This document shows, piece after piece, positions 13,716 to 63,559 of a stretch of 64,000 nt of DNA. The stretch covers positions 94,446,969-94,510,968 of the forward strand of contig NC_092370.1 of assembly GCF_030028105.1 (NCBI RefSeq), in the 5' to 3' direction. The notes below the pieces were generated by a model. The model was not told the origin of the DNA and did no database searches. It worked only from the letters and a program-made list of their open reading frames with translations. Positions within the stretch are counted from its first letter, which is position 1, and the number at the start of each line of letters is the position of its first letter. The position numbers and the translations under genes were made by a program. This DNA comes from Mobula birostris (lineage: Eukaryota).

Positions 13716-13719
13716 ATTC

Positions 13720-13733
13720 TGGGGGCTCGTCCG
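13720..13733 (+). promoter_or_regulatory. Primer-binding site complementary to tRNA-Pro
   Basis: tgggggctcgtccg just after the 5' LTR matches the classic tRNA-Pro PBS TGGGGGCTCGTCCGGGAT. Confidence 0.85.
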
Positions 13734-16524: not shown

Positions 16525-17730
16525 CACTGATCCCTCTAAGCTGTGCACATGTGTGTGTGCACTCACATTTTTCAACCAGTGCACAAAGGAAATTAATGTG
16601 CTTATAAAAGGTTAGTTACCTAAAATAATGTAGTAATTAATAATTATACTTATTGAAAATAATCTTTTAGCTACCTGTTTCTGTTAACTAGTTAGTCAGT
16701 TTTTCAAATACCACAACGCACGTCATTAATTTATGTCACCTCACCATTCCTGTTCCAGTTTGTACAGCTGCCTCACGGCGGCAGCCACATTTGGCGGACA
16801 ATGTTCATATAGTAAAGTTTACAAAGATCTGTTTCAAATCTTGTAGATAGCTTACTAAGTTTTTATTGAAAAAATATTGATTCACTATGTCAAATTCAAA
16901 AGAAGTGAAGGGCGTGAAGCGCAAAAGAATTGCAAATTTGATTTGCGCGAGGCAAAATTAACAAGATAAGAAAGCAGTATCTGGGAGACAATGTTTTGTG
17001 GAGTGACAAAGTTAAAGTTTTGCTAAGCCAACAACGTGAAGAAAATGTCACAGTAGATACAAGTTTGCTGTTGACTTTTATAAATAGGCTTTGTGTTCAT
17101 TTAGAAGAAAGGTTTCCTGAAGGTGAGGTACAAGAATGGTCAGCTTTTGATTTCTCCACAATTGCAGAACGTGACTTCACATTTGGCGATGAACAAGTTA
17201 ATGCCTTATGTCTAAAATATCATGATTTTCTAGCTGAAAATACTGTAATAGTTAGACAGTTTAATGGTTTCAAATTTCCCTTGCAAGAAAAAATTAAATC
17301 CAAACTGATTTCAAACTTTACTCAAGTGGTGGCATTTGTACTTCAAAATGAACAGTTTTGCGACCCTGCACAGTTGATGGACATTGGGGGAACCTTTCTT
17401 GTGTCTAGTGCAAACTGTGAGCGAGGTTTTAGCCTAATGAATCAACTCAAAAACAAGCTGAGAAACTGTTTAGGTGAATGTCATTTGGATATGTTAATGA
17501 GAATCAAAAGCTATCAATTGGATGGAAGTTCTGTTAGTCTAGATAGAGTTTACAAAGAATAAGTAAATTCCAAAGACAGGAGAGAGAAAAAATAACTGAG
17601 TGACTTAAATATGTATGTTATTTTGTTGTTATTCTGTGCAGTTTTATGTCAAGTATTTTGTAAACCTACATAAACTGTGTCATGTGTGCATTCAGTGCGC
17701 ACATACTTTTGTCACAGGAAAAAAATCATC
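16525..17730 (+). mobile_element. hAT DNA transposon fragment (ZNF862/hATC-like transposase C-terminus) nested in the Gypsy pol
   Basis: Abrupt AT-rich block starting cactgatccctctaag (TIR-like); ORF 16996-17562 ends SSANCERGFSLMNQLKNKLRNCLGECHLDMLMRIK, the hAT dimerisation motif; right boundary approximate. Confidence 0.8.
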
Positions 17731-19508: not shown

Positions 19509-20061
19509 TGTAACATGCTGTAAGATTTCACTGCGAATGTAATGGACTCTCTGTAGCAGCAATGTTTGGGTTATGACTAGAGATAACGGGGCTTTGGCAT
19601 GTGGGGACTATCCAATGAGAGAAATATTGTTCTTTCTTGTGGTTCTGGAAGAGAGAGTTTCGCGGTCTTTTGTTGGGGAGAGATGAGGAGAGAAGACGCG
19701 AGTGGAAAGAGTTGGTGGACCGTCGGACGGAGTGGGCATGGAGCGAGTGTCCGAAGGTCAGCAACGATCGGAGGAGGTCGCTGGTGGACAAACGGCTTAT
19801 CAGTGAGTTCCAACATTGTGCAATAGGCTGTTTCATGAGAATGGGCCCTTTTTTTGTTTTCTTTGCTAACCATATCGTCAAATTAAGAATTATAAAGCTC
19901 AATCATTTAATCACATATTGTGTACTGTTTGTTATTTTATGGTACTGATTTGCAACAGGGGACACATCACACAGCATCCACCAAAATGAGATTTCTTAAG
20001 TTTGGCCGGGCCAGGGGCTATCATCCCCTATATTAAGCTGTTAGCCAAAGCGAGATTTACA
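19509..20061 (+). repeat. 3' LTR of the Gypsy element
   Basis: Preceded by the purine-rich tract ggtgggggtagag; TG...CA termini; followed by TSD AGTA. Confidence 0.92.
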
Positions 20062-21021: not shown

Positions 21022-21120
21022 ATTCTGAAAGTCAACACCAGCACCAAGCTCTACCATGAGTTTAGCCAATTCTAGATCTTTCTTTCTGCAGCAAACATGT
21101 AAGACTGTATCCCCATCATC
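21022..21120 (-). CDS. trpn1: TRPN1 ankyrin exon (DDGDTVLHVCCRKKDLELAKLMVELGAGVDFQN)
   Basis: 99 bp, phase 0, ttccag| ... |gtgagt; resembles NompC GD.ALH.ACRRRD.DM...LVDYG..VD.QN. Confidence 0.92.
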
Positions 21121-26999: not shown

Positions 27000-27104
27000 C
27001 TTCCGTTGCGTCCTGAGTTGTAGACCAGCATTAACACTGAGTAGTTCCTTGCACACTGCGACATTACCAACTTCAGCACTGAGAAACAAGGGAATGCAGC
27101 CATC
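27000..27104 (-). CDS. trpn1: TRPN1 ankyrin exon (DGCIPLFLSAEVGNVAVCKELLSVNAGLQLRTQRK)
   Basis: 105 bp, phase 0, tcatag| ... |gtacag; resembles NompC G.IPL.LA.E.GN...C.ELL....QL. Confidence 0.9.
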
Positions 27105-29355: not shown

Positions 29356-29469
29356 CTTATCTTGCATCAATCGAGCATCTTTGTTTGAGGACCTCAGTAG
29401 CATCTGTACTATGTTGAGAGCACCACTGGGTCGACTGGCAGCAAAATGTAGAGGCAACTGATCCTTATG
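29356..29469 (-). CDS. trpn1: TRPN1 ankyrin exon (HKDQLPLHFAASRPSGALNIVQMLLRSSNKDARLMQDK), the most 5' exon recognised
   Basis: 114 bp, phase 0, tttcag| ... |gtagga; internal exon with no start codon. Confidence 0.9.
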
Positions 29470-30803: not shown

Positions 30804-30941
30804 TGCATTCAGCAGTCCATGGCATATTCACGAAACAAGGGGCAATCTATGGCAGTTGGATTAGCATGGTTTTGCATTCAGCAGTCCATGGCATATTCAC
30901 AAAACAAGGGGCAATCTATGGCAGTTGGATTAGCATGGTTT
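30804..30941. repeat. 69-bp tandem duplication, two near-identical copies
   Basis: tgcattcagcagtccatggcatattcac(g/a)aaacaaggggcaatctatggcagttggattagcatggttt repeated at 30804 and 30873. Confidence 0.9.
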
Positions 30942-33263
30942 TCTACGTTGTTCAAACAAACTGGCTTGGTGCTTCTCAATGGAGTCTTTCCTAGTTGATT
31001 TGAATTGGGAAACTTTTGAGCCCAGTGATTAGTTTGCAATGCACTATTGCCAGACATTACAGAAGAGGCAACAGCTCCAATGTGGCTTATGAGGGTATTT
31101 TTCAGGCTATCAGAATCATAAGGTCTTAGAGCTTGAAAAGAGGCCCTTCAGCCTACCAAGGCCCTGCTAAACATCCATTTGTTCTAATCTACTTTTACTC
31201 ATGCCACACTCTCTCCTCACACCCACACATGAGGGGCAATTTAACCCTACTCAGTCTGTGTTTATCCAAATACTTTTATATACAATCCCTTAAAACGCCT
31301 TCCAACAATGTATCCACTATTGATGTCAGGCTCACTGGCCTATAATTTCGCAGCCTGGAGCCTTTCTTAAACAATGAAACAACATTTGCTATCCTCCAAA
31401 CCTCCAGCAAACTTGCAGGGTAAATTCTATCATATTATAATCACCCTCTCCTAAGGGTTCCTTTACCTTAAGCTGTTTACTCAAATTTGGTTTATTGCAC
31501 AGCATGAAATCCAGAATTGCCATTTCCCTAGTGAGAGCCATCTAGTAGGGATACTGTACATACATTCCACATAACAATGTGTAGATCAACCGGAAAAATC
31601 AACTCCTGTGACAACTTGATTTTTTTCAGTCTATTTGCATATTGAAGTCCAACATTACCATTTTAACATTGTCTTTCTTTCTTCCTTTTTTAATCTCTTG
31701 TTGTTATGTGCACCTCACATTCTGGCTTCTATACACTGTATATAAATCCCACCAGGTTCTTTTGAGACAAGGAGGTGAGACAACTTTTTGAGATTAATAT
31801 AGGAAGTCAAGGCTCAAGGACTTGAAAGTAATATTGCAAAAAAAGCCACATAAACTCACACACAGTTGGAAGATACAGATTTGAAGTAATTGGTTAAGAG
31901 CCAGAGAGGAGGTGAAAGTTCTTTTACCCACTACACCCAGAATGCTTTACATGAAAGTCTGTTGTCACATGCTCATATAAGGACTTAGGGTCAACAAATG
32001 GTTTTTTATGTAAATAACTTTATTTTGTAATATTTCTGAATAAAGTATATTTTTGGGAAAAATAGCTCCTTATGCAGCTCTCTCTAAAGTTTGACTAAAC
32101 TTTCATAAAATCCCTTGAGGTAACCACTGCATAAAGATGCCACCTAAATTGGATGTGTTTCTTTAGCTGTTGTGGAAGTATGAGTTGGTAATGACTTTCA
32201 AAAGGAAATGAGGTTAGTGGTAAAGGGGAGACAATTGCAAAGAACAAGCAAGTGGAAATACTTAAGACAGTTCTTTCATAGAAGTCACAAGACATAACAA
32301 ACTGAATGCCCTTCTGTACTGCATTCTAAAGCAATTAGACTATCTGCTTAAGTAATAGCAACTTTACCCTTTTCATGAGGAATACACATGGACTGCAATG
32401 CATATTTTATATCTTTTCATCAGACATGCTGGATTTAAATCCAGTTCTCAAAATTGGGAATGCTGGAATCCAGTCTCCATAAATCTTCCCATTGAGCTGC
32501 CATTTAATATTAAATCTGGAACAATCAGCCCAAGAGCAGCTGGTAAAGTTTGCTGCTGTTGGTTTAATTGTTCTGTACTTATTATGTTCATGGAGAGTGA
32601 TTAACTGAAAAAGCCAATACACGGCTTCACTCATGTCTTTGTGTTGAACAAACCCCTCTAATTTGGCATTTAATTAATGATGTACTTATAAGGCAATAAT
32701 GGTGGCTTGTGCATTATATAGAAATAGGGGAGCAGTGTGAGGACAGTATTAAGTAGTGAGAGGTTTACTCTGCAGTTACTTGTGCTCTACCTGACCTAAG
32801 AAATATAGATATCACTTGCTGTTCAGGGGATACTGATTTTTTTTTTCTCCAAAAATACTTTATTCAGAAGTATTACAAAATAAAGTTATTTACATACAAG
32901 AAAAAAACATTTGTTGACTCTGAGTCCTTATTCAATAAAGGTATTTACAATAAAATTATGTGTTGGCTCTCTGTTCACTTACAAATGAAATATGTTTACA
33001 ATAAACCGTTCATTTACTCTCAACCTGTTCAGGGGCTACTGATGAACTTGCTCTACACAAAATTTTAACAAAATGAAGGACGAAAAGGAGATAGCAGATC
33101 CCAGCTGTACACAATTCCTTATAAGGTAGCGATATCACCTCTCCATTGCAATTGAAGCTGAATACATCATGTTGTCAAGACCTTACAAGGCATGAATGGT
33201 CACAAAAATCTAATACATCATAATGGATACCTCATATATTTAAGCTGTGAAAGATATTAAATA

Positions 33264-33271
33264 TATTTAAA
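33264..33271 (+). promoter_or_regulatory. TATA-like box of the Z1-like gene
   Basis: TATTTAAA about 60 bp upstream of the ATG; a second candidate tatatttaag lies near 33235. Confidence 0.45.
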
Positions 33272-33326: not shown

Positions 33327-33491
33327 ATGAAGCGCTCTAAGCCAGTTAAGAAGACAGAAACTTGTTATTTACGGAGGCGGCACTTACGACGATTATGTCT
33401 AACCAAGAGGGACAGGTCTAAAATATATCGAAGAAGATGCCACATTAGAAGATTGCCAAAAAGAAGAAGAAGAGGGAGAAGAAGATGTTAA
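33327..33491 (+). CDS. Scylliorhinine Z1-like Cys/Arg-rich protamine, 54 aa: [54 protein letters not shown]
   Basis: Hand-translated, below the ORF-track cut-off; ATG...TAA, intronless; [10 protein letters not shown]...[19 protein letters not shown] pattern matches catshark protamine Z1 as I recall it; AATAAA at 33621. Confidence 0.88.
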
Positions 33492-33620: not shown

Positions 33621-33626
33621 AATAAA
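33621..33626 (+). terminator. Poly(A) signal of the Z1-like gene
   Basis: AATAAA 130 bp after the stop, preceded by TTCACTGA...TTG. Confidence 0.7.
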
Positions 33627-39362: not shown

Positions 39363-40199
39363 CCTATATGAACTTTGAAGTACCCCTGACTGTGACTCTG
39401 CATTCAGCTGTAGTCCTAAATGGGAGTATCTGATGATTTTCTTCGGAGTTGAATGCAAAGAGTCACCACTGAAAGCCGCCAACTTGGCATCTGGTTGAAT
39501 TTCTGCAGCAGCACCAGTTGATGTGGAAAGGGCCACAATCACATTTAAATTTGGAAATAGGTGGCTTTCAGAAGAGATTGTGCTGAAAAAATAAACAAGA
39601 ATCTGGGTTTCAGATCAATCTATGAATAGAGATGCAGCATAGGATGAAATTTTGTAAATGCCTACAAAACAGGGGGACAATTCAGAATCATAGGAATGTA
39701 AATCACTATATGACATTACTATGGTGAGACAGGAATTGTTGGAGCTTTGGTGCTTTTAAATGCACAAAAGTTGCCAGGAGAGAGTGAGAGAGGGAGAGAA
39801 CAATGTGCATGCATAGACATCAGCGCATGCGCAGACAACATATCAGTATGTAGTGCTAAGGGGGAAAGTCATTGGTCTAAAAGAAATAGATCCATACATT
39901 ACAGTCCATTGACGAGAGTCCTTGATGAAGATGGTTTGAACCCAAATGCTGGGGTATCCGAAGCTAGATTTGAGACATGTTATCAAACTGGATCGGAGCA
40001 CAAAAGAAATGCTGGACGATATCACTAGTAGGCTTACTATTGAGCACAGAACTTATGCTCATGTTTTCCTTAAGTACCCAATTCTTGGCACCCAACACAT
40101 GATTATCGATTAATGAGAACGTCCTAAGCCCTTAAAGAGGCCATGCCAGCTATCCGTATTCTGGAGAATTAGAGTGTTTAAATCTCGGAAGCTGGCGTA

Positions 40200-42620
40200 G
40201 TTGCAAGCTGACCCCTGATGGCCTTGGTTGCTCAGAGAGTTGGTAATGGTAATCGTGAAAGAGATTCGGATCCACGATGTCTCTTTCTGGCACCCAGCAC
40301 CTTTCCTCCAGTCCACCAGGTATTGCTGAACACCTCCAGCACCTCACGAGTCCAAAAGTCTTTTCCCCATGAAGCCTGTTCCCCCTCAATAAACCTGGGT
40401 GGTGGGGAGGCGATAGTTGTGGGGCCAAGGGGCTGGTGCAGACAGGTTTTAATTCAGAGATTTAGAAGGTGGGGTTGATCTTTAGGGTCTTGGGGAGCTG
40501 CAGGGTGTAAGCCACTGGGTTTACTTTCCTCAGGATCTCAAAGAGACCAAAGAATTTGGGTGCCAACTTTCTAGATTCCACTCGGAGAGGCAAATATTAA
40601 GTGGACAGTTAGACCTGTTGCCCAGGCTGTAACGCGGATCGCAGACTTCTCCTTTGGCTTGCCTTGGTCTCCGCTCTCCGCTCTCCACATGGAGGCCAGC
40701 AAAATCTCTCTTGCCGTCATCCATTACTGCCTGCAGCATTGGACAAGTTCTTCTTCCTCAGGGACCCCAACTTCGGTTTCTTGCTCTAGAAAGAGGTGGA
40801 GGATAACAAAACTGGCACTTGAATAGAGACATCCCATGCACCGAGTGCTGTACAGTATTGTGGGTGATCTCTGCCCACATTAAATGGTCACACCACTGCT
40901 CAGGTCTTTCCAAGGCCAGGCATCTCAGGGTACATTCTAAATCTTGAATGGTCTGCTCCATCTGACCGTTGGACTGTGGATGAAACCCAGAGGAAAGGCT
41001 TGCTGTTATTCCTATCAGTTTACGGAGAGCCTTCCAGAAATGTGATGTGAATTGTTTACCATGATCTGAGACAATGTCCACTGGGGATCGTGGATCCTGA
41101 AGACCTGGTACAGGACAACCTCTCGTTCCAGTTCATCAAATTTATGGGACGGGGCATCTGGATTCTGGTTCTTCAACCGCAGTTGATAGGTCAGGATGAA
41201 ATTAAACTGGTTAAAAAACAAAGGCCACCTGGCCAGCCTGGAATTCAGCCTCTTGGCTTCCTGAATATAGGGCGGGTTTTAATGGTCAGTTCAAATGATA
41301 AAAGGGTTCTTGGCCCCTTTGGGCCAGTGAAGCCATTCCTCCAAAGCTAACTTAAGCACAAGAAACTCCTGATTCCAGATGTCATAGTTTCTCTTTGCCA
41401 GGGATAGCTGCCTGGAGAAGAATGCACACAGGTGCAGTTTGCTGTCTGAAGGTAACTGTTGAGACAAGACAGCACCTACTCTGATGTCTGAGGTGTCCAC
41501 CTCCCCAATGAAGGGAAGGTCCAGGTTAGGAGAAAGAAAGATGGGAGCTGTTGTAAATGGCTGTTTAAGCTCTGTGAAAGCAGCTTCTGCTTCAGTAGTA
41601 CAGACAAAAGGGCCCGTAGATTTCTTAGTTAGAGCCATCAGCATTCCTAATGAACTTCTGGTAGAAGTTAGCAAATCCCAAGAGTCGTTGGACCTGTTTG
41701 ATATTGGATGGTGGTGGCCAGTCTCTGACTGCCTGGGTCTTGGTAGGGTCCAACTCGAGATTACCATTAAGGATGATGAAACCCAAATATAAAACAGTCC
41801 TCACATGAAACTCAGACTTCTCCATCTTGACGTAAAGTCCATGGTCTAGTAGCCTCTTTAAAATGTCTCTGATGTGAGTGATGTGCACCTCCATGGACTT
41901 TGAGAAGATTAAGGTACCATCCAAGTAGACGAAGGCACACTTATGGAGAGTATCCCGGAGCACAGTGTTTATAAAGGCCTTGAAAACAGCTGGGGTGTTC
42001 ACTGGGCTGAAGGGCATAACCTGGTACTTGTAGTGTCTATTGAACGCCATCTTCCACTCATTGCCCTCCCTGATACAGACCAGATTGTAGGCACTCTGGA
42101 GATCTAATTTTGTGAATGCCCTCACTCCTTGGAGCATCTTGAAAGCCATATTCATAAGAGAAAGGGGGTAGCCATTCCTGGTCATTATGCAGTTTAATCC
42201 CCTGTAATTAATGCACTACAGCAGGCTCCCATCATTCTTTTGTACAAAGAAGAAGCTTGTGCCAGCTGGTGAGGTGGAGGGACTAATAAAGTCCATGGCA
42301 AGACCTTCCTTTATATACTCCTCCATGGCATTTCTCTCCAGGCCTGAGAGCACGTACAAACGACCCTGTAGAGGACAAGGACCAGGCAGCAGTTCCATGG
42401 TACAATTGTAGGGTCAGTGTAGTGGAAGAGTCGAGGCCTTTCCCTTGCTGAGAACCTCCTCTAAGTCCTTCTAAATATTGGGGATTTTGGCCGGTTTGGA
42501 TGGTGTTACCTCCTCCGGACTTCACTTTGAGGATGACTCCTGAGACCTTTTTGGTGACAGGGGTGATTCAACGGGCTTCAGGGTCCACAAGCAACAGCAG
42601 TGAGGTTCTTACAGAGGGTT
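40200..42620 (-). mobile_element. Degenerate chromodomain-bearing Gypsy (Tf2/sushi-like) pol without recognisable LTRs
   Basis: RT (FTKLDLQSAYNLV, YQVMPF, FVYLD), RNase H (EVDTSD..VGAVLSQ..CAFFSR..NYD), integrase (IVSDHGKQFTSHFW..SSGFHPQSNGQ), chromodomain-like YLVDW...WVPERDIVDP. Confidence 0.85.
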
Positions 42621-43220: not shown

Positions 43221-44672
43221 CCAGGTAAATTTGAGGGCAGGGTGGAAATTGGAGGCAAAGTGGATGAAGTCAATGAGTTCAGCATGGGTGCAGGAAGCAG
43301 CACCAATGCAGTCATTGGTGAAAAAAAAAATAAGGAATTATAATAATGGAGTAGAATAATTGTGCCGTTTTCTGGGAATGTTGCTGTGATCCTTATTGTT
43401 TTTACTTTATATTATTGATTGATTTCAGGACAGCAGCTCTGAAATAATGACACAAATACATAGAATTTGCTGAGAAAATAACAGATTTAAGCTGTAAGGA
43501 TATGTCTGGAATGACCTAGCCATTTATGATTAGAAAGAAATACTTTTATGATGTTCATATCTCCATAAATTAACCTGCCTTGTGACTTTTGCACAAGAAA
43601 TTGCTGAATTTGCAGAAAGATGGGGTTGGTATTTAACAGAGCCAGTATCCCCTTGATTGCATGTTCCTTCAGTGCTAGCCATTATTTCCAGTTCAGAAAC
43701 AGAACAAATAAAACTATGGTATCTTGGTCCAGCAGTTAGTAAATCAAATTTAAAAGCTTTATATTATTCTTACTTTTCTTTTGTCTTCTTTGCTCTCTCC
43801 TTTATTACAACTTTTTTTTCTCTTGGTGAAACTTAACTTCTCCAATCAATGGTACAGGGATTGTGCATATAGACTCATTAGCAACCCAGCAGCGATGCAG
43901 TGACAGAGCACACACCACCAGGTTCAGGAACAATTACCCTACAACTACCAGGCTCCTGAATCAGCGTGAATAACTTCATCTGTGCACCATAACTATGAAC
44001 TGATTCTACACACAAACTCTTCAAGAACTCTTTACAGCTCATGTTCTCAGTAATATTTCTTATTTACACAAATAATTATCTTTAGCACATTGTTTGTTTG
44101 TCAGTGTACATTTATGAATTTTTTTTCATAAATTCTGTTGTATTTCTTTATTTTCCTGTAAATGCCTGCAAAAAAACGGATCTTAAGATAGTATTTGGTA
44201 ATATATACGTACTTTGATAAATTTTACTTTGACATTGAGGTTCAGATACAGTTAATATCCTACAACAATCAGGCTCTTGAACCGACATGGATAACTTCAG
44301 CAACCACTACTTTGAATGGATTCTAGAACCTTCTTGCTGACTCACTTTCAAGGATTCTGGAACTCTTGCTCTCAGCATTAGGTTGTTTTGCACCGTTTGA
44401 TTTCTTTTGCACGTTGGTTATTTGTCAGTTTTTAACTGTTTATGTATAATTTTCAGTAAATTCAACAGTATTCATTTTATTCCTGTAAATGCCAGCAAGA
44501 AAATGAATCTTAAGGTAGTAGTATATGGTAACATGTATGTACTTTGATAATAAGTTTACTTTGAACTCCTACATGACCATCATGATGACATGACAATAGG
44601 GCAGGATGCTGAAAAGTCTATAAAACTAGAGACTGAACACTTCCAAAGCGGTCAGTGGCTGAAGGCTGAAGC

Positions 44673-44789
44673 ATGAAGAGGTGTGTGCGCAAACGCAGGC
44701 GCAGGCGTAGAAATGGCAAGAAACCTTGCAAACGAAAATCAAGTACTATTGTCAGAGCACATCTTGTTCATCGGCGAAGAGCTGGGTGA
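44673..44789 (+). CDS. Truncated duplicate of the Z2-like protamine, 38 aa: MKRCVRKRRRRRRNGKKPCKRKSSTIVRAHLVHRRRAG (possible pseudogene)
   Basis: 44579-44783 reads identical to 46003-46207 (promoter, TATA, 5' UTR, 37 codons), then GGG TGA from unrelated flank; lacks the native 3' UTR. Confidence 0.7.
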   Translation: MKRCVRKRRRRRRNGKKPCKRKSSTIVRAHLVHRRRAG

Positions 44790-46042
44790 TTGAAATTCAG
44801 GTAAAATTAACTAGTTTGATGTCATTTTTTTGAATTGCTGTTCTTATTAGTGCTAATGTGCTTTAGCAAAGGAAATTTGCCATCTTTCTCTGGACAAGCC
44901 TTTATGTGAAATCTTTAATAACTCATATTTACAGTGCATGGCCCCATAAAAAAGCCCAGCTAGCCATTCAGTTCAAGGGCAATAAATGCAGGCCAGTCAT
45001 GGGATAATTGGCAAAAAAACAATTAACCCTATTTCTTTAACTGATACAATCATTCACCATTTGGTCCTAGATTTCCAACTGCACTCACTATGCTGCTAGC
45101 ATCACACACATTAGTAATGGATATTCACGCTGAAAGTTGTGGAGAATAATCTAACTCTTGGTTCTCCACTCAAGGAGACTTGGTGCCATTCCTGAACTTG
45201 GCTGAATAGAACAACTGGATAAATGTTGCCAGGCCATATTGAAGTAACACCTTAGTGACTTGCTTTGTACTTTGACACCTACTTCAATAATATTGACTGA
45301 GAATAGCAGAGTTGGAATTTTAATACCTAAAAAATACTCTCCATTGGATGGAAACAAATGTTTCATGCATTGACTTCAAATAGTTTAGCTTAAATGTAGA
45401 AAACACTAAAGCTGGCCAACAAGATTTTGCTGAACCATATATAGTGTTATACTATATGATAATCAAGAGAAATTCATGATCAAATTGTACAAGCAATTGT
45501 TTGGGGAGACCAGACAGGTACCAACAGAGCAAAGAGAAGCTTCCAAAGACTTTGATTTAAACTTAAGAGGGACAGAGGTTCTTTACTTCGAGTGAAAGGT
45601 ATGTTGTGGGAAAACTCAATTGTCTCTCGGTAAATTTAGAATTATCAAGTTAAATTAAATCCAATCAGCCCTGGCAGATAGGACACAAATTTGATTGTGT
45701 TCAACATTTCACTGGTGAGAATATATACATGGGAACCCTTTGTAAGTTTTAACCCATTGTTGTGTTCCAGGATAATTGTGATCTGAATAGAAGTAGCTTT
45801 GCACGAAATACCTTAAAATCAGTTATCTGCTAAACATATACAATCCCAAAACAACTTGGCCCAAGTGCCAAATATAGACAAATACCTTAAAAGGCAGTTT
45901 GGGAAAAAAATACCTTAATAGGCAATTATATGTTGAACATACACAGCCCAAAAAAAATTTGTGACAAAATGCCAAATATGGAAAGTAGCTGAAACCTGTA
46001 AAATCATGATGACATGACAATAGGGCAGGATGCTGAAAAGTC

Positions 46043-46049
46043 TATAAAA
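46043..46049 (+). promoter_or_regulatory. TATA box of the Z2-like gene
   Basis: TATAAAA 54 bp upstream of the ATG, with TGATGACATGACA (CRE half-site-like) about 35 bp further upstream. Confidence 0.7.
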
Positions 46050-46096
46050 CTAGAGACTGAACACTTCCAAAGCGGTCAGTGGCTGAAGGCTGAAGC

Positions 46097-46228
46097 ATGA
46101 AGAGGTGTGTGCGCAAACGCAGGCGCAGGCGTAGAAATGGCAAGAAACCTTGCAAACGAAAATCAAGTACTATTGTCAGAGCACATCTTGTTCATCGGCG
46201 AAGAGCTTCAAGACGTTGTCATCGGTAA
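46097..46228 (+). CDS. Scylliorhinine Z2-like protamine, 43 aa: MKRCVRKRRRRRRNGKKPCKRKSSTIVRAHLVHRRRASRRCHR
   Basis: Hand-translated, absent from the ORF track; MK.C.RKRRRRRR...CK..SSTIVRAHLVHRR.A.RRC matches catshark protamine Z2 as I recall it; TATA upstream, AATAAA at 46370. Confidence 0.9.
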   Translation: MKRCVRKRRRRRRNGKKPCKRKSSTIVRAHLVHRRRASRRCHR

Positions 46229-46369
46229 GAAGCTATGACAGATCAAAGAAAAGAACCATGTTTTGAGCTATTCGAGTACTAAAGAAGATGTGCACAAGGC
46301 AGACTGGATGAGGAAACTGCTTGAATTGAAACTTCGTTCTTCACACCATGTTCACTGATTCAAATTGAA

Positions 46370-46375
46370 AATAAA
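46370..46375 (+). terminator. Poly(A) signal of the Z2-like gene
   Basis: AATAAA 142 bp after the stop, followed by a motif shared with the S1-like gene. Confidence 0.75.
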
Positions 46376-47167
46376 AGCCTACAAGTACTGAGACTTGGAA
46401 AAAATATTTTGTTTGACTCAAGTTTTTTCAAATATAATTGCAGAATTATTTCATTACATGGTCAAGGGTGCTTGAATTGAAAGCGAAAGTGGTGCAAATG
46501 AACCTCCTATAGATGTCAGTCAAGAGAACATTGAAACACTCATTCTGTTGGGAGGGCATTCCAGGACTTTGTAGATACTGTTTCTATGCATCTGCTAGTC
46601 TATGACTAGATGGTAGAGATAATGTATGATCGGTAGGATTCACCATTCTGTTGGTTGAGACTGGTGTAAGTGCAGGGGGATTTGATGAGTGAAAGACAGG
46701 GAGAAGGTGTGAAAGACATCCCAAAGCAGGCCCATCATCAACCATTGTGCTGGTGTGGTCATTGCCATACTAAAGGAAATGTAAGATTTACTTTGCAGTC
46801 AAACCACAATGTAATAATGAACAAGAGAAAATCTGCAGAAGCTAGAAATCCAAGCAACACACACCAAATGCTGGAGGAACTCAACGGGCCAGGCAGCATG
46901 TATGGAAAAGAACACAGTCAATGTTTTGGGACGAGATCCATCACCACTCCTGATGAAGGGTTGACTGTACTCTTTTCCATAGATACAGCCTGGCCTGCTG
47001 AGTTGGACCACAAGGCAAAGGAGCAGAATTAGGCCATCTGGCCCGTTGAGTTTGCTCTGCCATTCAGTCAAGGCTGATCCTTTTCTTTATCTCCTCCTTA
47101 ACTACTATTCCCGGCCCTCTCCCCAAAACCTTTGATGCCATGTCAAATCAAGAACCCATCAATCTCT

Positions 47168-48210
47168 TGTCATGGCTCGGTCCGTGAAGTCCGCATTCTG
47201 GTTCACGGTCTGGTCCATCGACCCTTGCTCCAGGTTTTCCTGTCTACCCTGTTTCTGTTTCTGTTGAGCACTAATTGAGGCAGCTGATTCTTGTTGGGGC
47301 TGGCTGTATAAATACCTCCAGAAACCAGGGGCATGGCTGCTGGATTGTTCTTGTCCTTACTCCTTGTATCCCTTCCCCTCTCTTCTGTTTCCTTGCCTGA
47401 AGCCCTGCCTTGTCTTGCTGGTAACTCCTGCCTCGCCTCGCCTGTAGTCTTGTCTTGGAGCCACCCTGTACCTAGCTCCCTTCCTGTCCCTTGCCTCCGT
47501 CAGGTAGGCCAGGCCGTATTGCCGTTACCCTGCAGTGGGTTCTGTCCCTTTCTGTCCCTTGCCTCCGTTGGGTAAGCCAGGCTGTGTTGCTGTTACCTAC
47601 AGTTGGTTCTGTCCCTTCCTGTCCCTTGCCTCTGTCGGATAAGCCGGGCTGTTTTGCTGTTACCCTGCGGTTGGTTCTGTCCCTTCCTGTCCCTTGCCTC
47701 CGTCGGGTAAGCCAGGCCATATTGCCCTTACCCTGTGGTGGTTTCTGTCCCTTCCTGTCCCTTGCCTCTGTCGGGTGGAGATCCGCGCCCTGCCCAGGAG
47801 GAGCTTCAAGACCCCAAGCCTCTAGCTGAGCCTCGCCTCATGCCGAGCTTCAAGACCCCAAGCCTCAAGCCTCTAGTCTCAAGTCTCTGGTCTCCAGCCT
47901 CACCTCAAGTCTCAAGCCTTACCTCGAGTCTCAAGCCTGAAGACTCCAGCCTCGTCTTGCCTGCCAGCCAAGTCACGTCCTTGCCCGGTTCTGGGGTCCG
48001 AGCCAGAGGCAAGACCCAGATTCTGGGTCCTTATACAGTCTCTGGCTTGGAGTCCAAGCCCTGGTTCCTAACTCTCTTGTCCAGTCCTGTTCCGGGTTCC
48101 CGGTTTTCATGTCCATGTCCTTACCCTCACCCTGTATCCTAGTCCTGTCCCTAGTACTTCAGTGTCTGTGTCTTGCACTTGGGTCTGTTCCCAGCCACCA
48201 CCTTATGACA
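47168..48210. mobile_element. Solo LTR, about 1.04 kb, with an internal minisatellite
   Basis: Termini TGTCAT...ATGACA; 5-bp TSD TCTCT at 47163-47167 and 48211-48215; about five copies of a ~65-bp unit at about 47478-47775. Confidence 0.8.
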
Positions 48211-49016
48211 TCTCTGCCTTAAATACACCCAACCATCTGGCCTCCACAGCTGCATGTGGCAACAAGTTCCACAAATTCACCACACTTTGGCTAAAGAAAT
48301 TTCTCTGCATCTCTGTTTTGAAAGGGTGCCCCTCTATCCTGAGGCTGTGCCCTCTTGTCCTAGGCTCTACCACCATGGGAAACATCCTTTCCACATCTAC
48401 CCTGTCTAGACCTTTCATCATTCGAAAGGTTTCAATGAGATCCTCATCCTTCTGGATTCCAGCGAGTACAGACCCGGAGCCATCAAACGTTCCTCGTATG
48501 ATAACCCTTTCATTACTGGAATCATCCTTGTGAACGTCCTCTGGACCGTCTCTAATGCCAGCATATCTCTTCTAAGATGAGGGGCCCAAAACTGTTCACA
48601 ATACTCAAGGTGAGGCCTCACCAGTCCCTTATAAAGCCTCAGCATCACATCCTTGCTCTTGAATTCTAGACCTGTTGAAATGAATGCTAACATGGCATTT
48701 ACGTTCCTCACCACTGACTCAACCTGCAAGTTAACCTTCAGGGTGTTCTGCACAAGGACTCCCAAGTCTCCCTGCATTTTAGATTCCTGGATTTTCTCCC
48801 CATTTAGAAAATAGTCCACACATTTATTTCTACTACTAAAGTGCATGACCATGCATTTTCCAACATTGTATTTTGTTTCCCATTTTCTTGCTCATGCTCC
48901 TAATCTGTCCAAGTCCTTCCACATCCTACCTGTTTCCTCAACACCACCTGCCCCTCCACTAATCTTCGTATCATCTGCAAACTTGGCAAAAAAGCCTTCT
49001 ATTCGATCATCTAAAT

Positions 49017-49266
49017 CAGTGGTCCTCAACCTCCGGGCTGCGGACCGATACCGGGCCGTGGAGAATGCAGCGGTGCAGCGGTAGCTGGAATGTATCCAGC
49101 ACATCTTTAAGAAAAAAGCTGAAATAAACAAGCTAATTGATTAGGTGCCGCCCAGCAAGTAAATGTCGGCCCAGATCAGAGGCGCCTCCTAATCAATTAG
49201 CTTATTTATAAGCTGCATTCTTCGCGACCCAGTATCGGTCCACGGCCCAGAGGTTGGGGACCACTG
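49017..49266. mobile_element. hAT MITE, 250 bp
   Basis: TIRs cagtggtcctcaacct ... aggttggggaccactg; 8-bp TSD ATCTAAAT. Confidence 0.9.
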
Positions 49267-52200
49267 ATCTAAATCATTTATATACAGCATAAAAATAAGT
49301 GGTCCCAACACCAGCCCCCGCGGGACAAAACTAGTCACTGGTAGCGAACCAGAAAAGGATCCTTTTATTCCTACTCACCGCCTCCTACCGATCAGCCAAT
49401 GCTCTAACCATGTTAGTAACTTTCCTGTAATACTATGGGGTCTTAACTTAGTAAGCAGCCTCATGTGTGGCACCTTGACTTAGGCCTTCTGAAAATCCAA
49501 ATATATAATATCCACTGTATCCCCTTTATCTATGCTACTTGTAATCTCCTGAAAGAATTCCACCAGGTTCATTAGGCAGGATTTTCCCTGAAGGAAACCA
49601 TGCTGACTTTGTCCTATCTTGTCCTGTGTAACCAAGTTCTCCATCACCTCATCCTTAACAATTGACTCTAGCTTCTTCCCAACTACTGACGTCAGGCTAA
49701 CTGGTCTATTAATTTCCTTTCTGCTGCCTTCCTCCTTTCTTAAAGAGTGGAGTGATATTTGCAATTTTCCAGTCCTCTGGCACTATGCCAGAGTCCAATA
49801 ATTTTTGAAAAATCATTTCTAATGCCACCACAATCTCTAACCCTACCTCCTTCAGAACCCTAGGGTGCAGTTCATCTGGTCCGGGTGACTTATCTTCTTT
49901 TAGGTCTTTCAGCTTTTTCAGCACCTTCTCTCTTGTAATAGTAACAGCACCTACCTCTCTTCCTTCACACACCACAAAATCAGGCATACTGCTCGTGACT
50001 TCCACAGTGAAGGCTGATACACAATACACATTTAGTTCATCAGCATCTCCTTGTCCCCCGTTATTATTTATCCTCCCTCATTTTCTAGCAGTCCTTTATC
50101 TACTCTCATTTCTCTTTTATTTTTAACATACTTGAAAAAACTTTTACTATCTACTTTGATATTATTTGCTAGTTTGCTTTCATATTTCAACTTTCCCCTT
50201 CTAATAATTTTTTTAGTTGATCTCTGTAGTTTTTTGAAAACTTCCCAATCCTCTACCTTCCCACTAATTTTTGCTTTGCTGTATGCCCTTCCTCTTGCTT
50301 TCACAATAGCATTGACTTCTCTTGTAAGCCACGTTGTACTATTTTACCATTTGAGTATTTCTTCATTTTTGGAATATACATGTCCTGCACCTTCCTCATT
50401 TTTCTCAGAAACGCACGCCATTGCTGTTCTGCTGACATCCCTGCCAGCGGCTCCATCCAATTTACTTCGGCAAACTCCTCTCTCATACCATTGTAATTTC
50501 CCTTACTCCACTGAAATACTGCTATATCAGACTTTACTTTCTCCCTATCAAATTTCAAGTTGAACACAATCATATTGTGATCACTGGTTCCTAAGGGTTC
50601 TTTTACCATAAGTTCCCTAATCGCCTCCGGTTCGTAACATAACATACAATCCAGTATAGCTGATCCTCTAGTATGTTCAATGATAAACTGGTCTAAAAAG
50701 CTATCTCTTAGGCATTCAACAAACTCACTTTCTTGAGATCCATTACCAACCTGATTTTCCTAACTGAACTGCATGTTAAAACCTCCCATGACTATCATAG
50801 CATTCCTCTTTTGATCCGCCTTATTTCCCGTTGTAACCTTTGATCCACCTCCCAGCCACTGTTGGGAGGTCTGTATATAACTGCCATCAATGTCTTTTTA
50901 CCCATGCAGTTTCTTAACTCACCCCACAAGGATTCAAACATCTTCCGATCCTATGTCACACCATCCCCTCTGCCTACCTTCCTATCCCTCCGATATAGCA
51001 TGTAACCTTGGACATTCAGCTCCCAACTACAACCATCCTTCCGCCACGATTCGGTGATAGAAACATAGAAAACCTACAGCACAATACAGGCCCTTTGGCC
51101 CACAATGCTGTGCTGATTTTGGAAATTATCTAGGGTTACCTCTATTTTTCTAAGCTCCATGTACCTATCCAGGAGTCTCTTAAAAGACCCCATCGTATTC
51201 GCCTTCACCACCGTCGACGGCAGCCTATTCCACGCACTCACCACTCTCTGCATAAAAAACTTACCCCTGACATCTCCTCTGTACTTACTTCCAAGCACCT
51301 TAAAACTGTGCCCTCTCGTGTTAGCCAATTCAGCTTGGGAAAAAGCCTCTGATTATCTATACGATCAATGCCTCTCATCATTTTATACAAGATATAGGAG
51401 CAAAATTAGGCCATTTGGCCTATCTAATCTACTCTGCCATTTCATCATGGCTGACCCAATTTTCCTCTCAGCCCCAATCTTCTGCCTTCTTCCAGTACCT
51501 CTTCATGCCCTGACCGATCAAGAATCTATCAATCTTTGTATTAAATACACATAAAGACTAGGCCTCCACAGGTGTCTGTTGTAAAGAATTCCACAGATTC
51601 ATCACTCCCTGGCTAAAGAAATTCCTTATCATCTCTGTTCTAAAAGGATGCCCCTCTCTTTTGAGGCTGTCCCCTCTGGTCTTAGACTCTCCCATCACAG
51701 GAAACATCCTCTTTACATCCACTCTATCAAGAACTTTCACCATCTCAGGGTCTATCCTGTGCTGCTCCCTTAGGATCTTGTGTACTTCAATGAACCTCCT
51801 TATTCTAAACTCCAAGGACAGATTCAACTATTCTTAACCACTCACGTATGATATTTCTTGTGTTCCAGGAATTAGTCAGGAGAATCTTTTTTTGAGACTA
51901 CCTCCAACACTAATATCTTCTTTCATAAATAAGAGATGAAAATTGTGTGCAGTACTTCAGGTGTCTCTGTAACAGGACTTCCCTATTTTAAACCCTTAAC
52001 CACTTTGCAAGAAGAGCCAATATGCCAGATGCCTTCCTAACTACTTGCTGTACGCGTCTGTTAACTTCCTGTGTAGTGTGCATATACACCAAGATCCCTA
52101 TAAACTTCATTCATCTGCAAATTCTCTTCTCTTAGATACTGATCTGTCTTTTGTTTTCTCTTTGCAAAATGCATGGCTTTACATTTTTCCTCTTTAAATT

Positions 52201-53548
52201 CCACTTGCTAATCTTTTCCTACTCAATCTACTGTATATCTTATTCCAGAATCCAAAATGACATCACAACATACCCTCCCTCCTATCTTACTTTAAGCACT
52301 GCTTCCTGCTTAATACTGTATAAACAGTAAATCATTGAGGGGCAAGAACTGATTACAGTATTAGGGCACTTCCTAGTTACAACTTTACAGCCTAAATGTT
52401 ACAGAACCTGCACCAGTTCACTCACGGTCTCTTAGAGAACAAAATCTACTATTCATTTCTGATCGAGCCTATGTGACAAAGATTGCTGTCTTTTGATTAG
52501 AGATTACGGCCACAGCATCATACCTGGCAATCTGTAATATTGCAACAAGATCATCCACCTTATTTCTTATACTACACACATTTAGATACACAGCTTGAGG
52601 ACCATATTTGCTATCCTTTCTGATTCTGCATCCCTGTTGGCTGCAATTAAGTCCCATCACCTGCCTGCCTTTCCTGACAATCTGACTGCACGCTACCTTT
52701 ACCTTTTTACCATCCATCCTATCCTGAGTACTTTCACTCCGGTTCCCAACTCCTACCGAGTTCTTCCAATATTTTGTGTGTGTTACAATGTAGTAATGAC
52801 CTGTTTTGAAATTGGTGAGGGCAGTACTGAGGGAGTGTTGTATTGCTGGAATATTCTTTCACATTAAGCATTAAATTGATACTCTACCAACCCCGCTAAG
52901 TGACCTTGAATAATTTTAGGCATTTCTCTGAAGAAAACTGAGCAGGTGTGTTATCCCCTAGGCTCTGGCCAAAATCGTCCTCATTCAGCATTACTAAAAC
53001 ATATTCCCAATTCTGTACTACATTCCTGTTTGAGTGAGTTTGTTGTGCATAAAATATAGAGTAAGAAACAATAACTACACTTTAAGAATGTGCCTTGAGT
53101 GTAAAGCGCCTCAGGATGATATGAAAGTACTTTATATGTGCAAGCCTTTCTGTTTTATCTTATTTTGTTTTCAAGCTTTAAGCAATGCAGCTAGTTCTTC
53201 AAAGTAATGGGGGAGATGTTCTGTTCTCAGGCCGGCAGGCATACTGTGAATTATCTACTGATCTTTCTCAGAGGAAGTCCTAATTTCCAGAGTTGGCCTG
53301 GGCTTGCAGGGTACCTTCCATCCTATACTAGTGACTCTGAGTGGTATCCAGAAGAGCCAGACAAACTGCAATGGGTTTCACAGCTCCCGGGTAGGAAATA
53401 GCTGTAAGTACAATCAGTCTGTTCAAATAAATGGAAGAAGTCAGCTACCGGGAGCTGTAAGTAGGGATTTTTTAAATATTTAATTGTTAGGGTTCGTTTT
53501 TAATATATGTGTGTTCTTTACAATCTTAAAGTAGTAAAGTGAAAAGTA

Positions 53549-53645
53549 AAAGTGGCAGGCAGGCAAATCCAGGGCAAAAATCTGTAGGTCCCTTGAAAAG
53601 TGGCCCTTTCTGATTTTTGCCTTGGATTTGCCTGCCTGCCACTTT
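53549..53645. repeat. 34-bp inverted repeat with a 29-bp spacer at the 5' end of a CR1 copy
   Basis: aaagtggcaggcaggcaaatccagggcaaaaatc (53549-53582) against gatttttgccttggatttgcctgcctgccacttt (53612-53645), one mismatch. Confidence 0.85.
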
Positions 53646-53689
53646 AACATAATTGTATAAGGGCTAAGAGTGTTGTAAAAGCAAGCCTG

Positions 53690-56567
53690 AAGGCTTTGTG
53701 TGGCAATGCAAGGAGCATTCGTAACAAGGTGGATGAATTGAATGTGCAGATAGTTATTAATGAATATGATACAGTTGGGATCATAGAGACATGGCTCCAG
53801 GGTGACCAAGGATGGGAGCTCAACATTCAAGGATATCCAATATTCAGGAGGGATAGACATGAAAGAAAAGGAGGTGGGGTAGCATTGCTGGTTAGAGAGG
53901 AGATTAACACATTAGAAAGGAAGGACGTTAGCCTGGAGGATGTGGGATCAATATGGGTAGAGCTGCATAACACTAAGGGGCAGAAAACGCTGGTGGGAGT
54001 TGTGTACAGGCCACCTAACTGTAGTAGTGAGGTTGGGGATGGCATTAAACAAGAAATTAGAAATGTGTGCAATAAAGGAACAGCAGTTATAATGGGTATC
54101 TTCAATCTACATATAGATTGGGTGAACCAAATTAGTAAGGGTGCTGAGGAAGAGGATTTCTTGGAATGTATGCGGGATGGTTTCCTGAACCAACATGTCA
54201 AGGAACCAACTAGACAGCAGGCCATTCTAGACTGAGTATTGAGCAATGAGGAAGGGTTAGTTAGCAATCTTGTCATGAGAGGCCCCTTGGTAAGAGTGAC
54301 CATAATATGGTGGAATTCTTCATTAAGATGGAGAGTGACATAGTTAATTCAGAAACAAAGGTTCTGAACTTATAGAAGGGTAACTTTGAAGGTATGAGAT
54401 ATGAATTAGCTAAGATAGACTGGCAAATGATACTTCAAGGGTTGACGGTGGATATGCAATAGCAAGGATTTAAAGATCCCATGGATGAACCACAACAATT
54501 GTTCATCCCAGTTTGGCAAAAGAATAAATCAGGGAAGGTAGTGCACCCGTGGCTGACAAGGGAAATTAGGGATAGTATCAATTTCAAAGAAGAAACATAC
54601 AAATTAGCCAGAAAAAGTGGCACACCTGAGGACTGGGAGAAATTCAGAGTCCAGCAGAAGAGGACAAAGGGCTTAATTAGGAAAGGGAAAAAAGATTATG
54701 AGAGAGAGCTGGCAGGGAATATAAAAACTGACTGTAAAAGCTTTTATAGATATGTGAAAAGAAAAAGATTGCTTTGACAAATGTAGGTCCCTTACAGTCA
54801 GAAACAGGTGAATTGATCATGGGGAACAAGGACATGGCAGACCAATTGAATAACTACTTTGGTTCTGCCTTCACTAAGGAGGACATAAATAATCTTCCGG
54901 AAATAGTAGGGGACCGAGGGGCTAGTGAGATGGAGGAACTGAGGGAAATACATGTTAGTAGGGAAGTGGTGTTAGGTAAATTGAAAGGGTTAAAGGCAGA
55001 TAAATCCCCAGGGCCAGATGGTCTGCATCCCAGAGTGCTTAAGGAAGTGGCCCAAGAAATAGTGGATGCATTAGTGATAATTTTTCAAAACTCTTTAGAT
55101 TCTGGACTAGTTCCTGAGGATTGGAGGGTGGCTTATGTAATCCCGCTTTTTAAAAAAGGAGGGAGAGAGTAATTGGGGAATTATAGACTGATTAGCCTAA
55201 CATCAGTGGTGGAGAAAATGCTAGAGTCAGTTATCAAAGATGTGATAACAGCACGTTTGGAAAGCGGTGAAATCATCGGACAAAGTCAGCATGGATTTGT
55301 GAAGGGAAAATCATGTCTGACGAATCCCATAGAATTTTTTGAGGATGTAACTAGTAGAGTGGATAGGGGAGAACCAGTGGATGTGGTATATTTGGATTTT
55401 CAAAAGGCTTTTGACAAGGTCCCACACAGGAGATTAGTGTGCAAACTTAAAGCACACGGTATTGGGGGTATGGTATTGTTGTGGATAGAGAATTGGTTGG
55501 CAGACAGGAAGCAAAGAGTGGGAATAAATGGGACCTTTTCAGAATGGCAGGCAGTGACTAGTGGGGTACCGCAAGGCTCAGTGCTGGGACCTCAATTGTT
55601 TACAATATATATTAATGACTTAGGCGAGGGAATTAAATGCAGCATCTCCAAGTTTGCGGATGACACGAAGCTGGGTGGCAGTGTTAGCTGTGAGGAGGAT
55701 GCTAAGAGGATGCAGGGTGACTTGGATAGGTTAAGTGAGTCGGAAAATTCATGGCAGATGCAACTTAATGTGGATAAATGTCAGGTTATCCACTTTGGTG
55801 TGAAGAACAGGAAAACAGATTATTACCTGAATGGTGGCCGATTAGGAAAAGGGGAGGTGCAACGAGACCTGGGTGCCATTGTACACCAGTCATTGAAAGT
55901 GGGCATGCTGATACAGCAGGCGGTGAAAAAGGCGAATGGTATGCTGGCATTCATAGCGAGAGGATTCGAGTACAGGAGCAGGGAGGTTCTACTGCAGTTG
56001 TACAAGGCCGTGGTGAGACCACACCTGGAGTATTGTGTGCAGTTTTGGTCCCCTAATCTGAGGAAAGACATTCTTGCCATAGAGGGAGTACAAAGAAGGT
56101 TCACCAGATTGATTCCTGGGATGGCAGGACTTTCATATGAAGAAAGACTGGATCGACTAGGCTCATACTCGCTGGAATTTAGAAGATTGAGGGGGGATCT
56201 TATTGAAACATATAAAATTCTAAAGGGATTGGACAGGCTAGATGCAGGAAGATTTTTCCCGATGGTGGGGAAATCCAGAACGAGGGGTCACAGTTTGAGG
56301 ATAAAGGGGAAGCCTTTTAGGACCGAGATGAGGAAAAATTTCTTCACACAGAGAGTGGTGAATCTGTGGAATTCTCTGCCACAGGAAACAGTTGAGGCCT
56401 GTTGATTGGCTATATTTAAGAGGGAGTTAGATATGGCCCTTGTGGCTAAAAGGATCAGGGTGTATGGAGAGAAGGCAGGTACAGGGTGCTGAGTTGGATG
56501 ATCAGCCATGATCATACTGAATGGCGGTGCAGGCTGAATTGCCTACTCCTGCACCTATTTTCTATGT
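53690..56567 (+). mobile_element. CR1 LINE with near-complete ORF2 (APE endonuclease and RT), few stops/frameshifts
   Basis: ORFs 53696-54235 (NARSIRNK..ETW..GVVYRPP..G.FN), 54481-55172 and 55173-56405 (YLDFQKAFDKV, PQGSVLGP, FADD, RTRGH); CR1 3' tail cctactcctgcacctattttctatgt. Confidence 0.95.
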
Positions 56568-62300: not shown

Positions 62301-62696
62301 TATTTTATTTATCTTATGGTACTAAGATATTTACATCTTGATGAATACAAAATATGGTTCTTCAGACCGTACACGGTACGATTACATCACTCACCAAAGG
62401 CATTACAAGTTTTGTCCATATATGGCATGACGTTGGTATAAAGACACTGAAATCCATTGTGTATTGATCAAACTCACCAATAAAATGATATGATCAATGT
62501 ATCAGTGTATTCACCTTATAAGGTGCCATTTACATCTCTATGAATACAAAATATGGCTTCAGACCAAACATGGTATGATTATGTCACTCAACAATGGTGC
62601 TTGCAGGCATTAAAAGCTGCCTACGGGAGCTAACATTCAATTGAAAATCTCTAATCAGTGAGATAGTGTACAAGACAATTTGCTAATCAAGAGGAC

Positions 62697-62963
62697 ATGA
62701 CCAAGTCACGATATCGTACCAGACGCAGCCGACCACGTAACCGATATGGTAGGCGGCTGCGTAAATCAAAGGGTCGAAGGAGAGGGCGGCGAGTCAGCCG
62801 CAGACCTCGCCATGCCTCCTACAGGAGAAAGGTACAGAAGAGTGTGCATCAAAAACGCCGCAGCAGACTCCGAGATGAAATTGAAAATTTGAAAGTAAAG
62901 AACAACAGACGTCTTAATGAATCGCTTAAGCAGCATAGAATGCCCATGAGGGTGCCTGTCTGA
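62697..62963 (+). CDS. Spermatid-specific intermediate (transition-like) basic protein S1, 88 aa
   Basis: MTKSRYRTRRSRPRNRYGRRLRKSKGRRRGRRVSRRPRH...RDEIENLKVKNNRRLNESLKQHRMPMRVPV; the N-terminal TKSRYR and C-terminal DEI.NLKVKNNRRLNESLKQHR.PMRVPV match catshark S1 as I recall it; intronless, AATAAA at 62997. Confidence 0.9.
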   Translation: MTKSRYRTRRSRPRNRYGRRLRKSKGRRRGRRVSRRPRHASYRRKVQKSVHQKRRSRLRDEIENLKVKNNRRLNESLKQHRMPMRVPV

Positions 62964-63002: not shown

Positions 63003-63559
63003 AAACAAGTACTTGAGACTTGGAAAACAAAATCTTCCTGTTTCGTTTTACATTTTTCTCAACCTATTAGAAATAGTGAATCAAAAAATTAATCTCAAAG
63101 ACATAATTAAATCTTGTATTAAAAAGGTTCCATCTGCAAAAGAAAGCTACCCTGCAGACCTCTGGCAGTATTCAGTAGTGGTGTCTTATGGCTATGAATG
63201 ATCCTTGGTTCTGATAAATGTACTTTGCAAGAACATCAGGCTGTAGTTGTGCCCAAGTCTGAAATTTAAGGCATTTTGCAACTATGACCTTTGGAGGGTA
63301 TCAAAGTCAAAAGCAGGGTGCAATGGGTGATTGTGACATTTTGACTTATAAATAAGATTTTGGATGAGTGAGTGCCAAGAGGTCACAAGTTAACTGTGAA
63401 TGACAGATAGGGCAGGAGCAGACACAGGCAGCAAATTGGACTGGAGATGGAGGATGAAGGGAGAAGGTCTTTGATGGGTTGTCATGATTTCTTGCGATCA
63501 ATTATTTACCATTCTTTATGCCATAACAGATTGAGTGCATCATGGCATCATCAGAACCA

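Follow-up and report, generated by a model that had tools for sequence, protein, structure and literature searches.

A likely Z2-type sperm protamine gene among basic-protein open reading frames in an inferred TRPN1 intron of Mobula birostris

Descriptions of the basic proteins of shark sperm go back decades and concern one catshark. In 1985, Martinage reportedly sequenced a dogfish sperm protamine rich in cysteine and arginine, and we take it to be the protein that goes by the name Z2; dogfish Cys- and Arg-rich protamines and the transitions of spermiogenesis are likewise said to have been treated by Gusse and Chevaillier in 1978 and 1981 and by Saperas in 1997. Does a ray genome hold a complete gene for such a protein, and if so, what surrounds it and what might its distinctive core do? 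We addressed this in a 64,000-nucleotide stretch of Mobula birostris DNA (hereafter, the window), for which an initial annotation had proposed a complete protamine gene at positions 46097–46228. We conclude with considerable confidence that these positions hold an intact, intronless gene, likely for a ray Z2-type sperm protamine, and that it is one of four basic-protein open reading frames (ORFs) apparently lying antisense in one TRPN1 intron.

A compact gene for a 43-residue basic protein

The gene and its flanking elements comprise three features:

46003–46049, plus strand: putative proximal promoter of the 43-aa gene, with two TGACA words and TATAAAA
46097–46228, plus strand: intronless ORF of 43 aa plus stop, rich in Arg, Lys, Cys, and His, recognized by translation, by ORF ranking, and by the lack of a splice joint among the X20 matches listed
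46229–46404, plus strand: 3′ UTR of the 43-aa gene, with AATAAA (46370–46375), a 22-nt element (46381–46402), and the poly(A) site (46399–46404)

Each anatomical element that had been claimed for the gene was located. The canonical TATAAAA occupies 46043–46049, −54 from the ATG; ahead of it are two TGACA words resembling CRE half-sites, at 46010 and 46015, and the base at the −3 Kozak position is A. Translation of the plus strand yields 43 residues and a stop, with AATAAA downstream at 46370. Within the protein, we found the R6 cluster (R8–R13), three Cys (Cys4, Cys19, and Cys41), and three His (His30, His33, and His42). The non-repetitive core corresponds to residues 23–35 (13 residues) and occurs again in a 205-nt duplicate located 1,424 nt upstream of the gene's matching stretch.

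The composition of the protein (16 Arg, or 37%; 6 Lys, or 14%; 3 Cys; 3 His; no Asp or Glu) is distributed such that residues 23–33 form the only non-basic spacer, between basic blocks at residues 2–22 and 34–40. It is small, Arg-rich, clustered in its Arg, and free of acidic residues, as protamines are, and it carries three Cys that could serve as cross-links through putative disulfides. Its net basic content ranks first among the 634 ATG-initiated ORFs of at least 20 aa in the window. ORFs of at least 35 aa with an Arg plus Lys content of at least 40% number four in the window, versus none in 100 windows shuffled in two-base blocks. The ORF had escaped the ORF track, for which its size under the usual length cut-off would be explanation enough.

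We aligned contigs from relatives to positions 44784–46700, using four of the 24 listed runs: X20 (organism J), X7 and X19 (organism B), and X9 (organism C). None of the 24 is recorded as RNA; X20 and X19 are RNA runs by guess, and X7 was treated as DNA. The support count excludes runs X1–X4 (organism A), from which the window itself may come, as well as the zero-share RNA runs X21–X24 and the small-share runs outside the four aligned. In X20, 6,673 contigs fell on the gene region, and their cover was confined to 46064–46404, approximately 10^5-fold over background. Summed depth was 4 × 10^5 to 1.8 × 10^6 over 46064–46383, at most 22 up to 46063, and 0 beyond 46447, the rise falling in bin 46064–46127, downstream of the putative promoter; expression level is only poorly gauged by contig depth. 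Among the loose ends listed (the best 20 of 68), 20 contigs end in an A run at 46404, 29 nt past the AATAAA; the genome itself has six A at 46399–46404, so internal priming may account for these ends. No splice joint over the gene was present among the X20 matches listed. An abundant intronless mRNA would be expected to leave just such a signal, with TATA and AATAAA as its limits and with extra A, and an abundant polyadenylated message from a compact gene is in turn what a protamine gene would be expected to give; here it is seen in relative J, in a run that is RNA by guess. In X19, from organism B, there was no cover over the 3′ end of the intact gene.

Relatives B and C also contain extra, partial copies of the gene. 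One, in the X7 data from B, spans 46188–46398 with 22 differences and 7 gap columns; another, in the same data, spans 46281–46404 at doubled depth and continues into A-rich letters. Both are devoid of the promoter and 5′ end. In C (X9), an extra copy starts at 46188, as in B. Judged from their sequences, these 5′-truncated, promoterless copies, which stop at the poly(A) site, are probably retrocopies of the 43-aa gene's mRNA, with one probably old and common to B and C and the other probably young and present in B. Such retrocopies point to expression of the gene in the germ line. As a separate observation, a contig of C that spans promoter and gene (45858–46335) has a depth of 11, versus approximately 5 for its neighbors, which could reflect either two complete copies or noise.

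Host gene, clustered neighbors, and a partial duplicate

The minus strand of the window encodes part of TRPN1:

29356–29469, minus strand: TRPN1 internal exon, residues 118–155 (tblastn); the inferred host intron starts above this exon and continues beyond the end of the window
27000–27104, minus strand: TRPN1 exon, residues 156–190 (tblastn)
21022–21120, minus strand: TRPN1 exon, residues 191–223 (tblastn)
11567–11668, minus strand: TRPN1 exon, residues 224–257 (tblastn)
9269–9370, minus strand: TRPN1 exon, residues 258–291 (tblastn)
2021–2119, minus strand: TRPN1 exon, residues 292–324 (tblastn)
74–274, minus strand: TRPN1 exon, residues 325–391 (tblastn and protein search)

Two ankyrin-like minus-strand pieces match NompC (PDB 5vkq) colinearly, and a protein search with a third returned 98 proteins, chondrichthyan TRPN1 on top. 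These colinear ankyrin-repeat exons, with matches named as TRPN1, all have canonical AG/GT ends, from 29469 down to 74, and their 274 residues are identical to M. birostris TRPN1 (XP_072115641.1; 274/274). Over the same residues, 270 are identical in M. hypostoma, 258–261 in intact Hypanus and Hemitrygon models, 243–247 in sharks, and 227 in the chimaera, which places the Z2-like gene in a chondrichthyan host and assigns the window to a manta or devil ray. XP_072115641.1 extends N-terminally by 117 residues beyond the exon at 29469, whose acceptor is normal, and residues 1–120 of four TRPN1 proteins, used as queries, turned up no orthologous exon anywhere in the window (4/4 queries). From this we infer that 29470–64000 belongs to a single TRPN1 intron of at least 34.5 kb, with the exons for residues 1–117 located outside the window.

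All nine Narcine TRPN1 models in the protein cluster (P0018 and P0117–P0124) are without these 117 N-terminal residues, their first exon being the one that ends at 29469 or a later one, owing either to a real truncation or to an annotation break at a large intron; this tempers the inferred nesting. The TRPN1 introns are also home to what we take to be mobile elements: a broken Ty3/gypsy-type retrotransposon at ~13100–19950, with gag-, RT-, and integrase-like ORF pieces and similar terminal stretches; a presumed DNA-transposase-like piece inside it (16942–17562); and, between the clustered genes (~40100–42250 and 48000–56500), a presumed second decayed gypsy-like element plus several CR1/L2-type LINE fragments. 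Tandem arrays occur at 47477–47776 (68 nt, 4.4 copies) and 30804–30942 (69 nt, 2 copies).

The four most basic ORFs of the window (33327–33491, 44673–44789, 46097–46228, and 62697–62963) are all on the plus strand and lie within the inferred intron, apparently antisense to TRPN1. In addition to the 43-aa gene, the cluster comprises:

33327–33491, plus strand: 54-aa Arg/Cys-rich ORF with 4 Cys; AATAAA at 33621, no canonical TATA within 300 nt
44579–44783, plus strand: exact 205-nt partial duplicate (promoter, 5′ UTR, and codons 1–37), 100% identical to 46003–46207
44673–44789, plus strand: truncated 38-aa ORF of the duplicate, without Ser38, Cys41, His42, and the native 3′ UTR
62697–62963, plus strand: 88-aa basic ORF, Cys-free, with an acidic tail; TATAAA at 62437, AATAAA at 62997, shared 3′ element at 63005–63027

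We take the 54-aa ORF to be a Z1-like protamine and the 88-aa ORF to be an S1/S2-like spermatid transition protein. Protein searches with the Z1-like ORF found no homolog. The S1-like ORF found one among 1.84 billion representatives, a Callorhinchus milii protein (A0A4W3HC88; 60% identity, E 7.7e-15) without an assigned name; none of 2,000 shuffles aligned as well. This chimaera homolog implies that the S1-like family already existed when chimaeras diverged from the shark and ray lineage. Upstream of the S1-like gene, a 72-nt segment is duplicated (62329–62400 and 62528–62597; 83% identity). The TATAAA of the gene, with TGACGT just ahead, is 260 nt from the ATG, implying a long 5′ UTR, a 5′ UTR intron, or a second start. 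The Z1-like gene has a 14-nt AT-only palindrome (33257–33270) ~60–70 nt before its ATG and uses AGA for 11 of its 20 Arg codons; codon choice is mixed in the Z2- and S1-like genes.

Between AATAAA and the cleavage site, an element of 22/23 nt is common to the Z2- and S1-like genes. When the 40 nt downstream of AATAAA at 112 sites were considered against the Z2-like gene, the S1-like gene scored 40, whereas none of the remaining 110 sites scored above 20; gene-wide DNA similarity between the two also exceeded 300 of 300 shuffles. The element contains a 5-bp hairpin, and its single indel lies in the hairpin loop. The stability of this hairpin is not significant (equaled in 16 and 12 of 200 shuffles), and the Z2-like 3′ UTR is less structured than shuffles (191/200). 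Z1-like DNA had no significant similarity to that of the Z2- or S1-like gene (41 and 39 of 300 shuffles), nor did similarity among the Z1-, Z2-, and S1-like proteins rise above shuffles (862, 875, and 1,346 of 2,000). By way of one short element, these comparisons suggest that the Z2- and S1-like genes may have common ancestry or shared regulation.

The duplicate reads codons 1–37 as in the 43-aa gene, followed by Gly and a stop; an AATAAA downstream, at 44981, is at chance level. Inclusion of the TATA box identifies it as a DNA-level copy. Both of its junctions are found in the X7 data from relative B, where the 205-nt unitig has a depth of 23.4 versus 13.3 and no difference, and their presence there indicates that the duplicate is not an assembly artifact. 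In relative C (X9), the contig is unbroken across 46003 and 46207, and there is no duplicate joint among the matches listed, which suggests that the duplication probably postdates the separation from C. All four copies of the segment, two in the window and two (collapsed) in B, agree throughout their 205 nt, against a flank difference of 1.45%. The chance of this identity is P ~0.003 if all four evolve neutrally and P ~0.05 if only the truncated copy does, which hints, if weakly, at gene conversion or selection. It is this identity that would favor a second working protamine gene, or conversion keeping both copies alike, along with one 200-nt X19 contig (B, RNA by guess; depth 4.2) that crosses the 3′ junction. 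Against this stand the marginal P of ~0.05, the loss of Ser38, Cys41, and the native 3′ UTR from the 38-aa ORF, the lack of a duplicate joint among the matches listed for C or J, and the strandless nature of the junction contig, which could derive from DNA or TRPN1 pre-mRNA. We regard a working or converted copy as unlikely; the duplicate is most likely young and non-functional.

Identity of the protein and role of its core

We take the 43-aa protein to be a Z2-like keratinous protamine, comparable to scylliorhinine Z2 of the catshark Scyliorhinus canicula, and presume, in line with the initial annotation, that its core is identical in catshark Z2. Database searches were largely blank. In Pfam, the 43-aa protein matched no protamine or transition-protein family at E ≤ 10 (only Nnf1, E 0.17), and the three neighboring ORFs matched none at E ≤ 1. 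No match to the 43-aa protein was found in PDB sequences or the ESM Atlas, and a word-index protein search, run twice, gave one candidate each time, neither scoring, with catshark Z2 not among the results. An exact look-up in a collection of 15 billion proteins contained none of the four ORFs, and Rfam gave 0 matches at E ≤ 1 over 44400–46700. One metagenome locus out of 186 candidates (L001; 52% over 23 aa, with differing flanks) was rejected as a chance match. Decoys that retained the 13-residue core were recovered in 22 of 200 cases by phmmer at E ≤ 1 and in 103 of 200 by an alignment profile at E ≤ 10; because of this low search power, the blanks are uninformative on novelty. Structure predictors yield spurious helices for protamines, according to the accessible portion of PMC13756071.

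How the gene varies among relatives bears on its core, for which unusual conservation had been put forward as the mark of a functional site. Between B and the window, 0 of 402 nt differ over 46003–46404, versus 22 of 1,513 nt in the flanks (Fisher P 0.005). Constraint therefore extends over the entire unit, UTR included, and not over the core alone. In relative C, the ORF is covered by one contig, and listed indels upstream of the ATG explain all 11 of its gap columns. Relative J, among the loose ends listed, apparently has an Arg run longer by two codons and a replacement of His42-Arg43, with Cys41 kept. The tables for J and C cover the best 40 of 128 substitutions, 12 of 20 indels, 20 of 68 loose ends, and 26 of 6,714 pieces, and the letters of the core in both organisms lie outside these rows. 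The J data fit variable ends and a middle that is possibly more constrained.

Ser in the wake of paired basic residues is in a context typical of basophilic-kinase sites, and Ser23/Ser24 and Ser38 are so placed. On the strength of the sequence, the leading reading, to which we give roughly even odds of being right, is that the core holds phosphorylation sites that would pace deposition on DNA. Mammalian P2 binds zinc, and a site for zinc or another metal in the core, formed by His30 and His33 (His30-x-x-His33) with Cys19 or Cys41, would draw on two histidines one helical turn apart with Cys nearby. The initial annotation's suggestion of metal binding, if taken to involve all three His, is weakened by the replacement of His42 in organism J, and the absence of change between the window and B throughout gene and UTR again argues against core-specific constraint. 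We rank phosphoregulation above the metal site, which we think rather improbable; that the core has no special role is somewhat less doubtful. PMC8812575, in its accessible portion, places segments phosphorylated on Ser/Thr beside the Arg domain of PRM1 and describes interprotamine disulfides made by Cys.

What else could the 43-aa gene be? Instead of a final protamine orthologous to catshark Z2, its product might be a transition protein of spermatids or some other basic testis protein particular to the lineage. The 3′-end element held in common with the S1-like gene and absent from the Z1-like gene would fit this, as would the Lys content of 14%, and the Z2 orthology itself is putative. Yet the protein is small, without an acidic residue, and equipped with an R6 run and three Cys, whereas the 88-aa S1-like protein is Cys-free with an acidic tail; its presumed agreement with Z2 points the same way, leaving a transition protein quite improbable. 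The dearth of database matches could also suggest a chance ORF, a dead copy, or an assembly artifact. No shuffled window gave such an ORF, the gene is intact in B and is without a frame-shifting indel among those listed for C, poly(A) RNA-like cover is present in J, and the junctions of the duplicate recur in an independent organism, so we give this explanation almost no credence. The claim of a complete protamine-type gene from a cartilaginous fish stands, based on its anatomy, the ray host genome, the poly(A) RNA-like cover, the probable retrocopies, and the sperm-protein-like neighbors.

For a Z2-type protamine, a plausible course of events would begin with the TATA promoter and its CRE-like words firing in spermatids to give a polyadenylated mRNA of ~330 nt, whose abundance in germ cells would suffice for more than one retroposition. 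The 43-aa protein would then displace histones and S-type transition proteins, its basic blocks (2–22 and 34–40) neutralizing DNA phosphates, while Cys4, Cys19, and Cys41 might cross-link adjacent protamines. Phosphorylation sites that set the pace of deposition may reside at core residues 23–33, a step on which we remain evenly divided.

Relation to known sperm protein genes

Catshark scylliorhinine Z2 is of the same size class as the 43-aa protein, with similar Arg clusters, a similar Cys and His content, presumably the same central non-basic core, and a cartilaginous host; the ray gene differs in having a truncated tandem copy upstream. The 88-aa and 54-aa ORFs of the window would fit catshark S1/S2 and Z1. 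Relative to the catshark set, the six frames of the window hold no S2-, Z3-, or Z4-like ORF and no further protamine-like ORF of any kind.

Mammalian PRM genes have one intron and lie in an unrelated neighborhood. The ray genes differ in being intronless and apparently nested antisense in TRPN1, and their proteins match no Pfam protamine family. The likeness to mammalian PRM1-PRM2-TNP2 lies in tight linkage and common orientation of protamine-type and transition-protein-type genes and in Cys-bearing protamines. TRPN1/NompC, a mechanosensory channel (XP_072115641.1; PDB 5vkq), enters as the host gene only. The accessible portion of PMC13756071 describes a PRM1-PRM2-TNP2 gene cluster in mammals and repeated gain of Cys by amniote protamines and does not mention sharks. 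In the mainly open-access literature searched, there was no account of a chondrichthyan protamine gene cluster or of genes nested in TRPN1 (in one listing, TRPN1 was absent from the best 20 of 282 rows), and the accessible portions of PMC11607694, PMC10099843, PMC6523547, PMC2112839, and PMC3750513 contain nothing on gene organization.

The 43-aa gene alone would be an expected ortholog; the inferred cluster context, shared 3′ element, duplicate, and probable retrocopies are of more interest. Tentatively, and at less than even odds, we suggest that an ancient, co-regulated cluster of Z1-, Z2-, and S-type genes may lie antisense in the TRPN1 intron across cartilaginous fishes, with the Z2- and S1-like genes descended from one ancestor, a shared 3′ RNA element timing their processing or translation, a layout like that of PRM1-PRM2-TNP2 reached independently, and TRPN1 as the synteny anchor. 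Protamine genes are often absent from annotations, as shown for birds in the accessible portion of PMC13756071. A TRPN1-anchored locus would let orthologs be gathered across chondrichthyans, and selection on the core and cysteines could then be measured in an internally fertilizing lineage. The same set would let one ask whether the clustering of protamine and transition-protein genes, and disulfide-locked chromatin, arose separately from those of mammals. If our suggestion is true, the TRPN1 intron would guide the search for these genes, missing from annotations, in the genomes of all sharks, rays, and chimaeras, and cartilaginous fishes would have come to the PRM1-PRM2-TNP2 layout independently of mammals.
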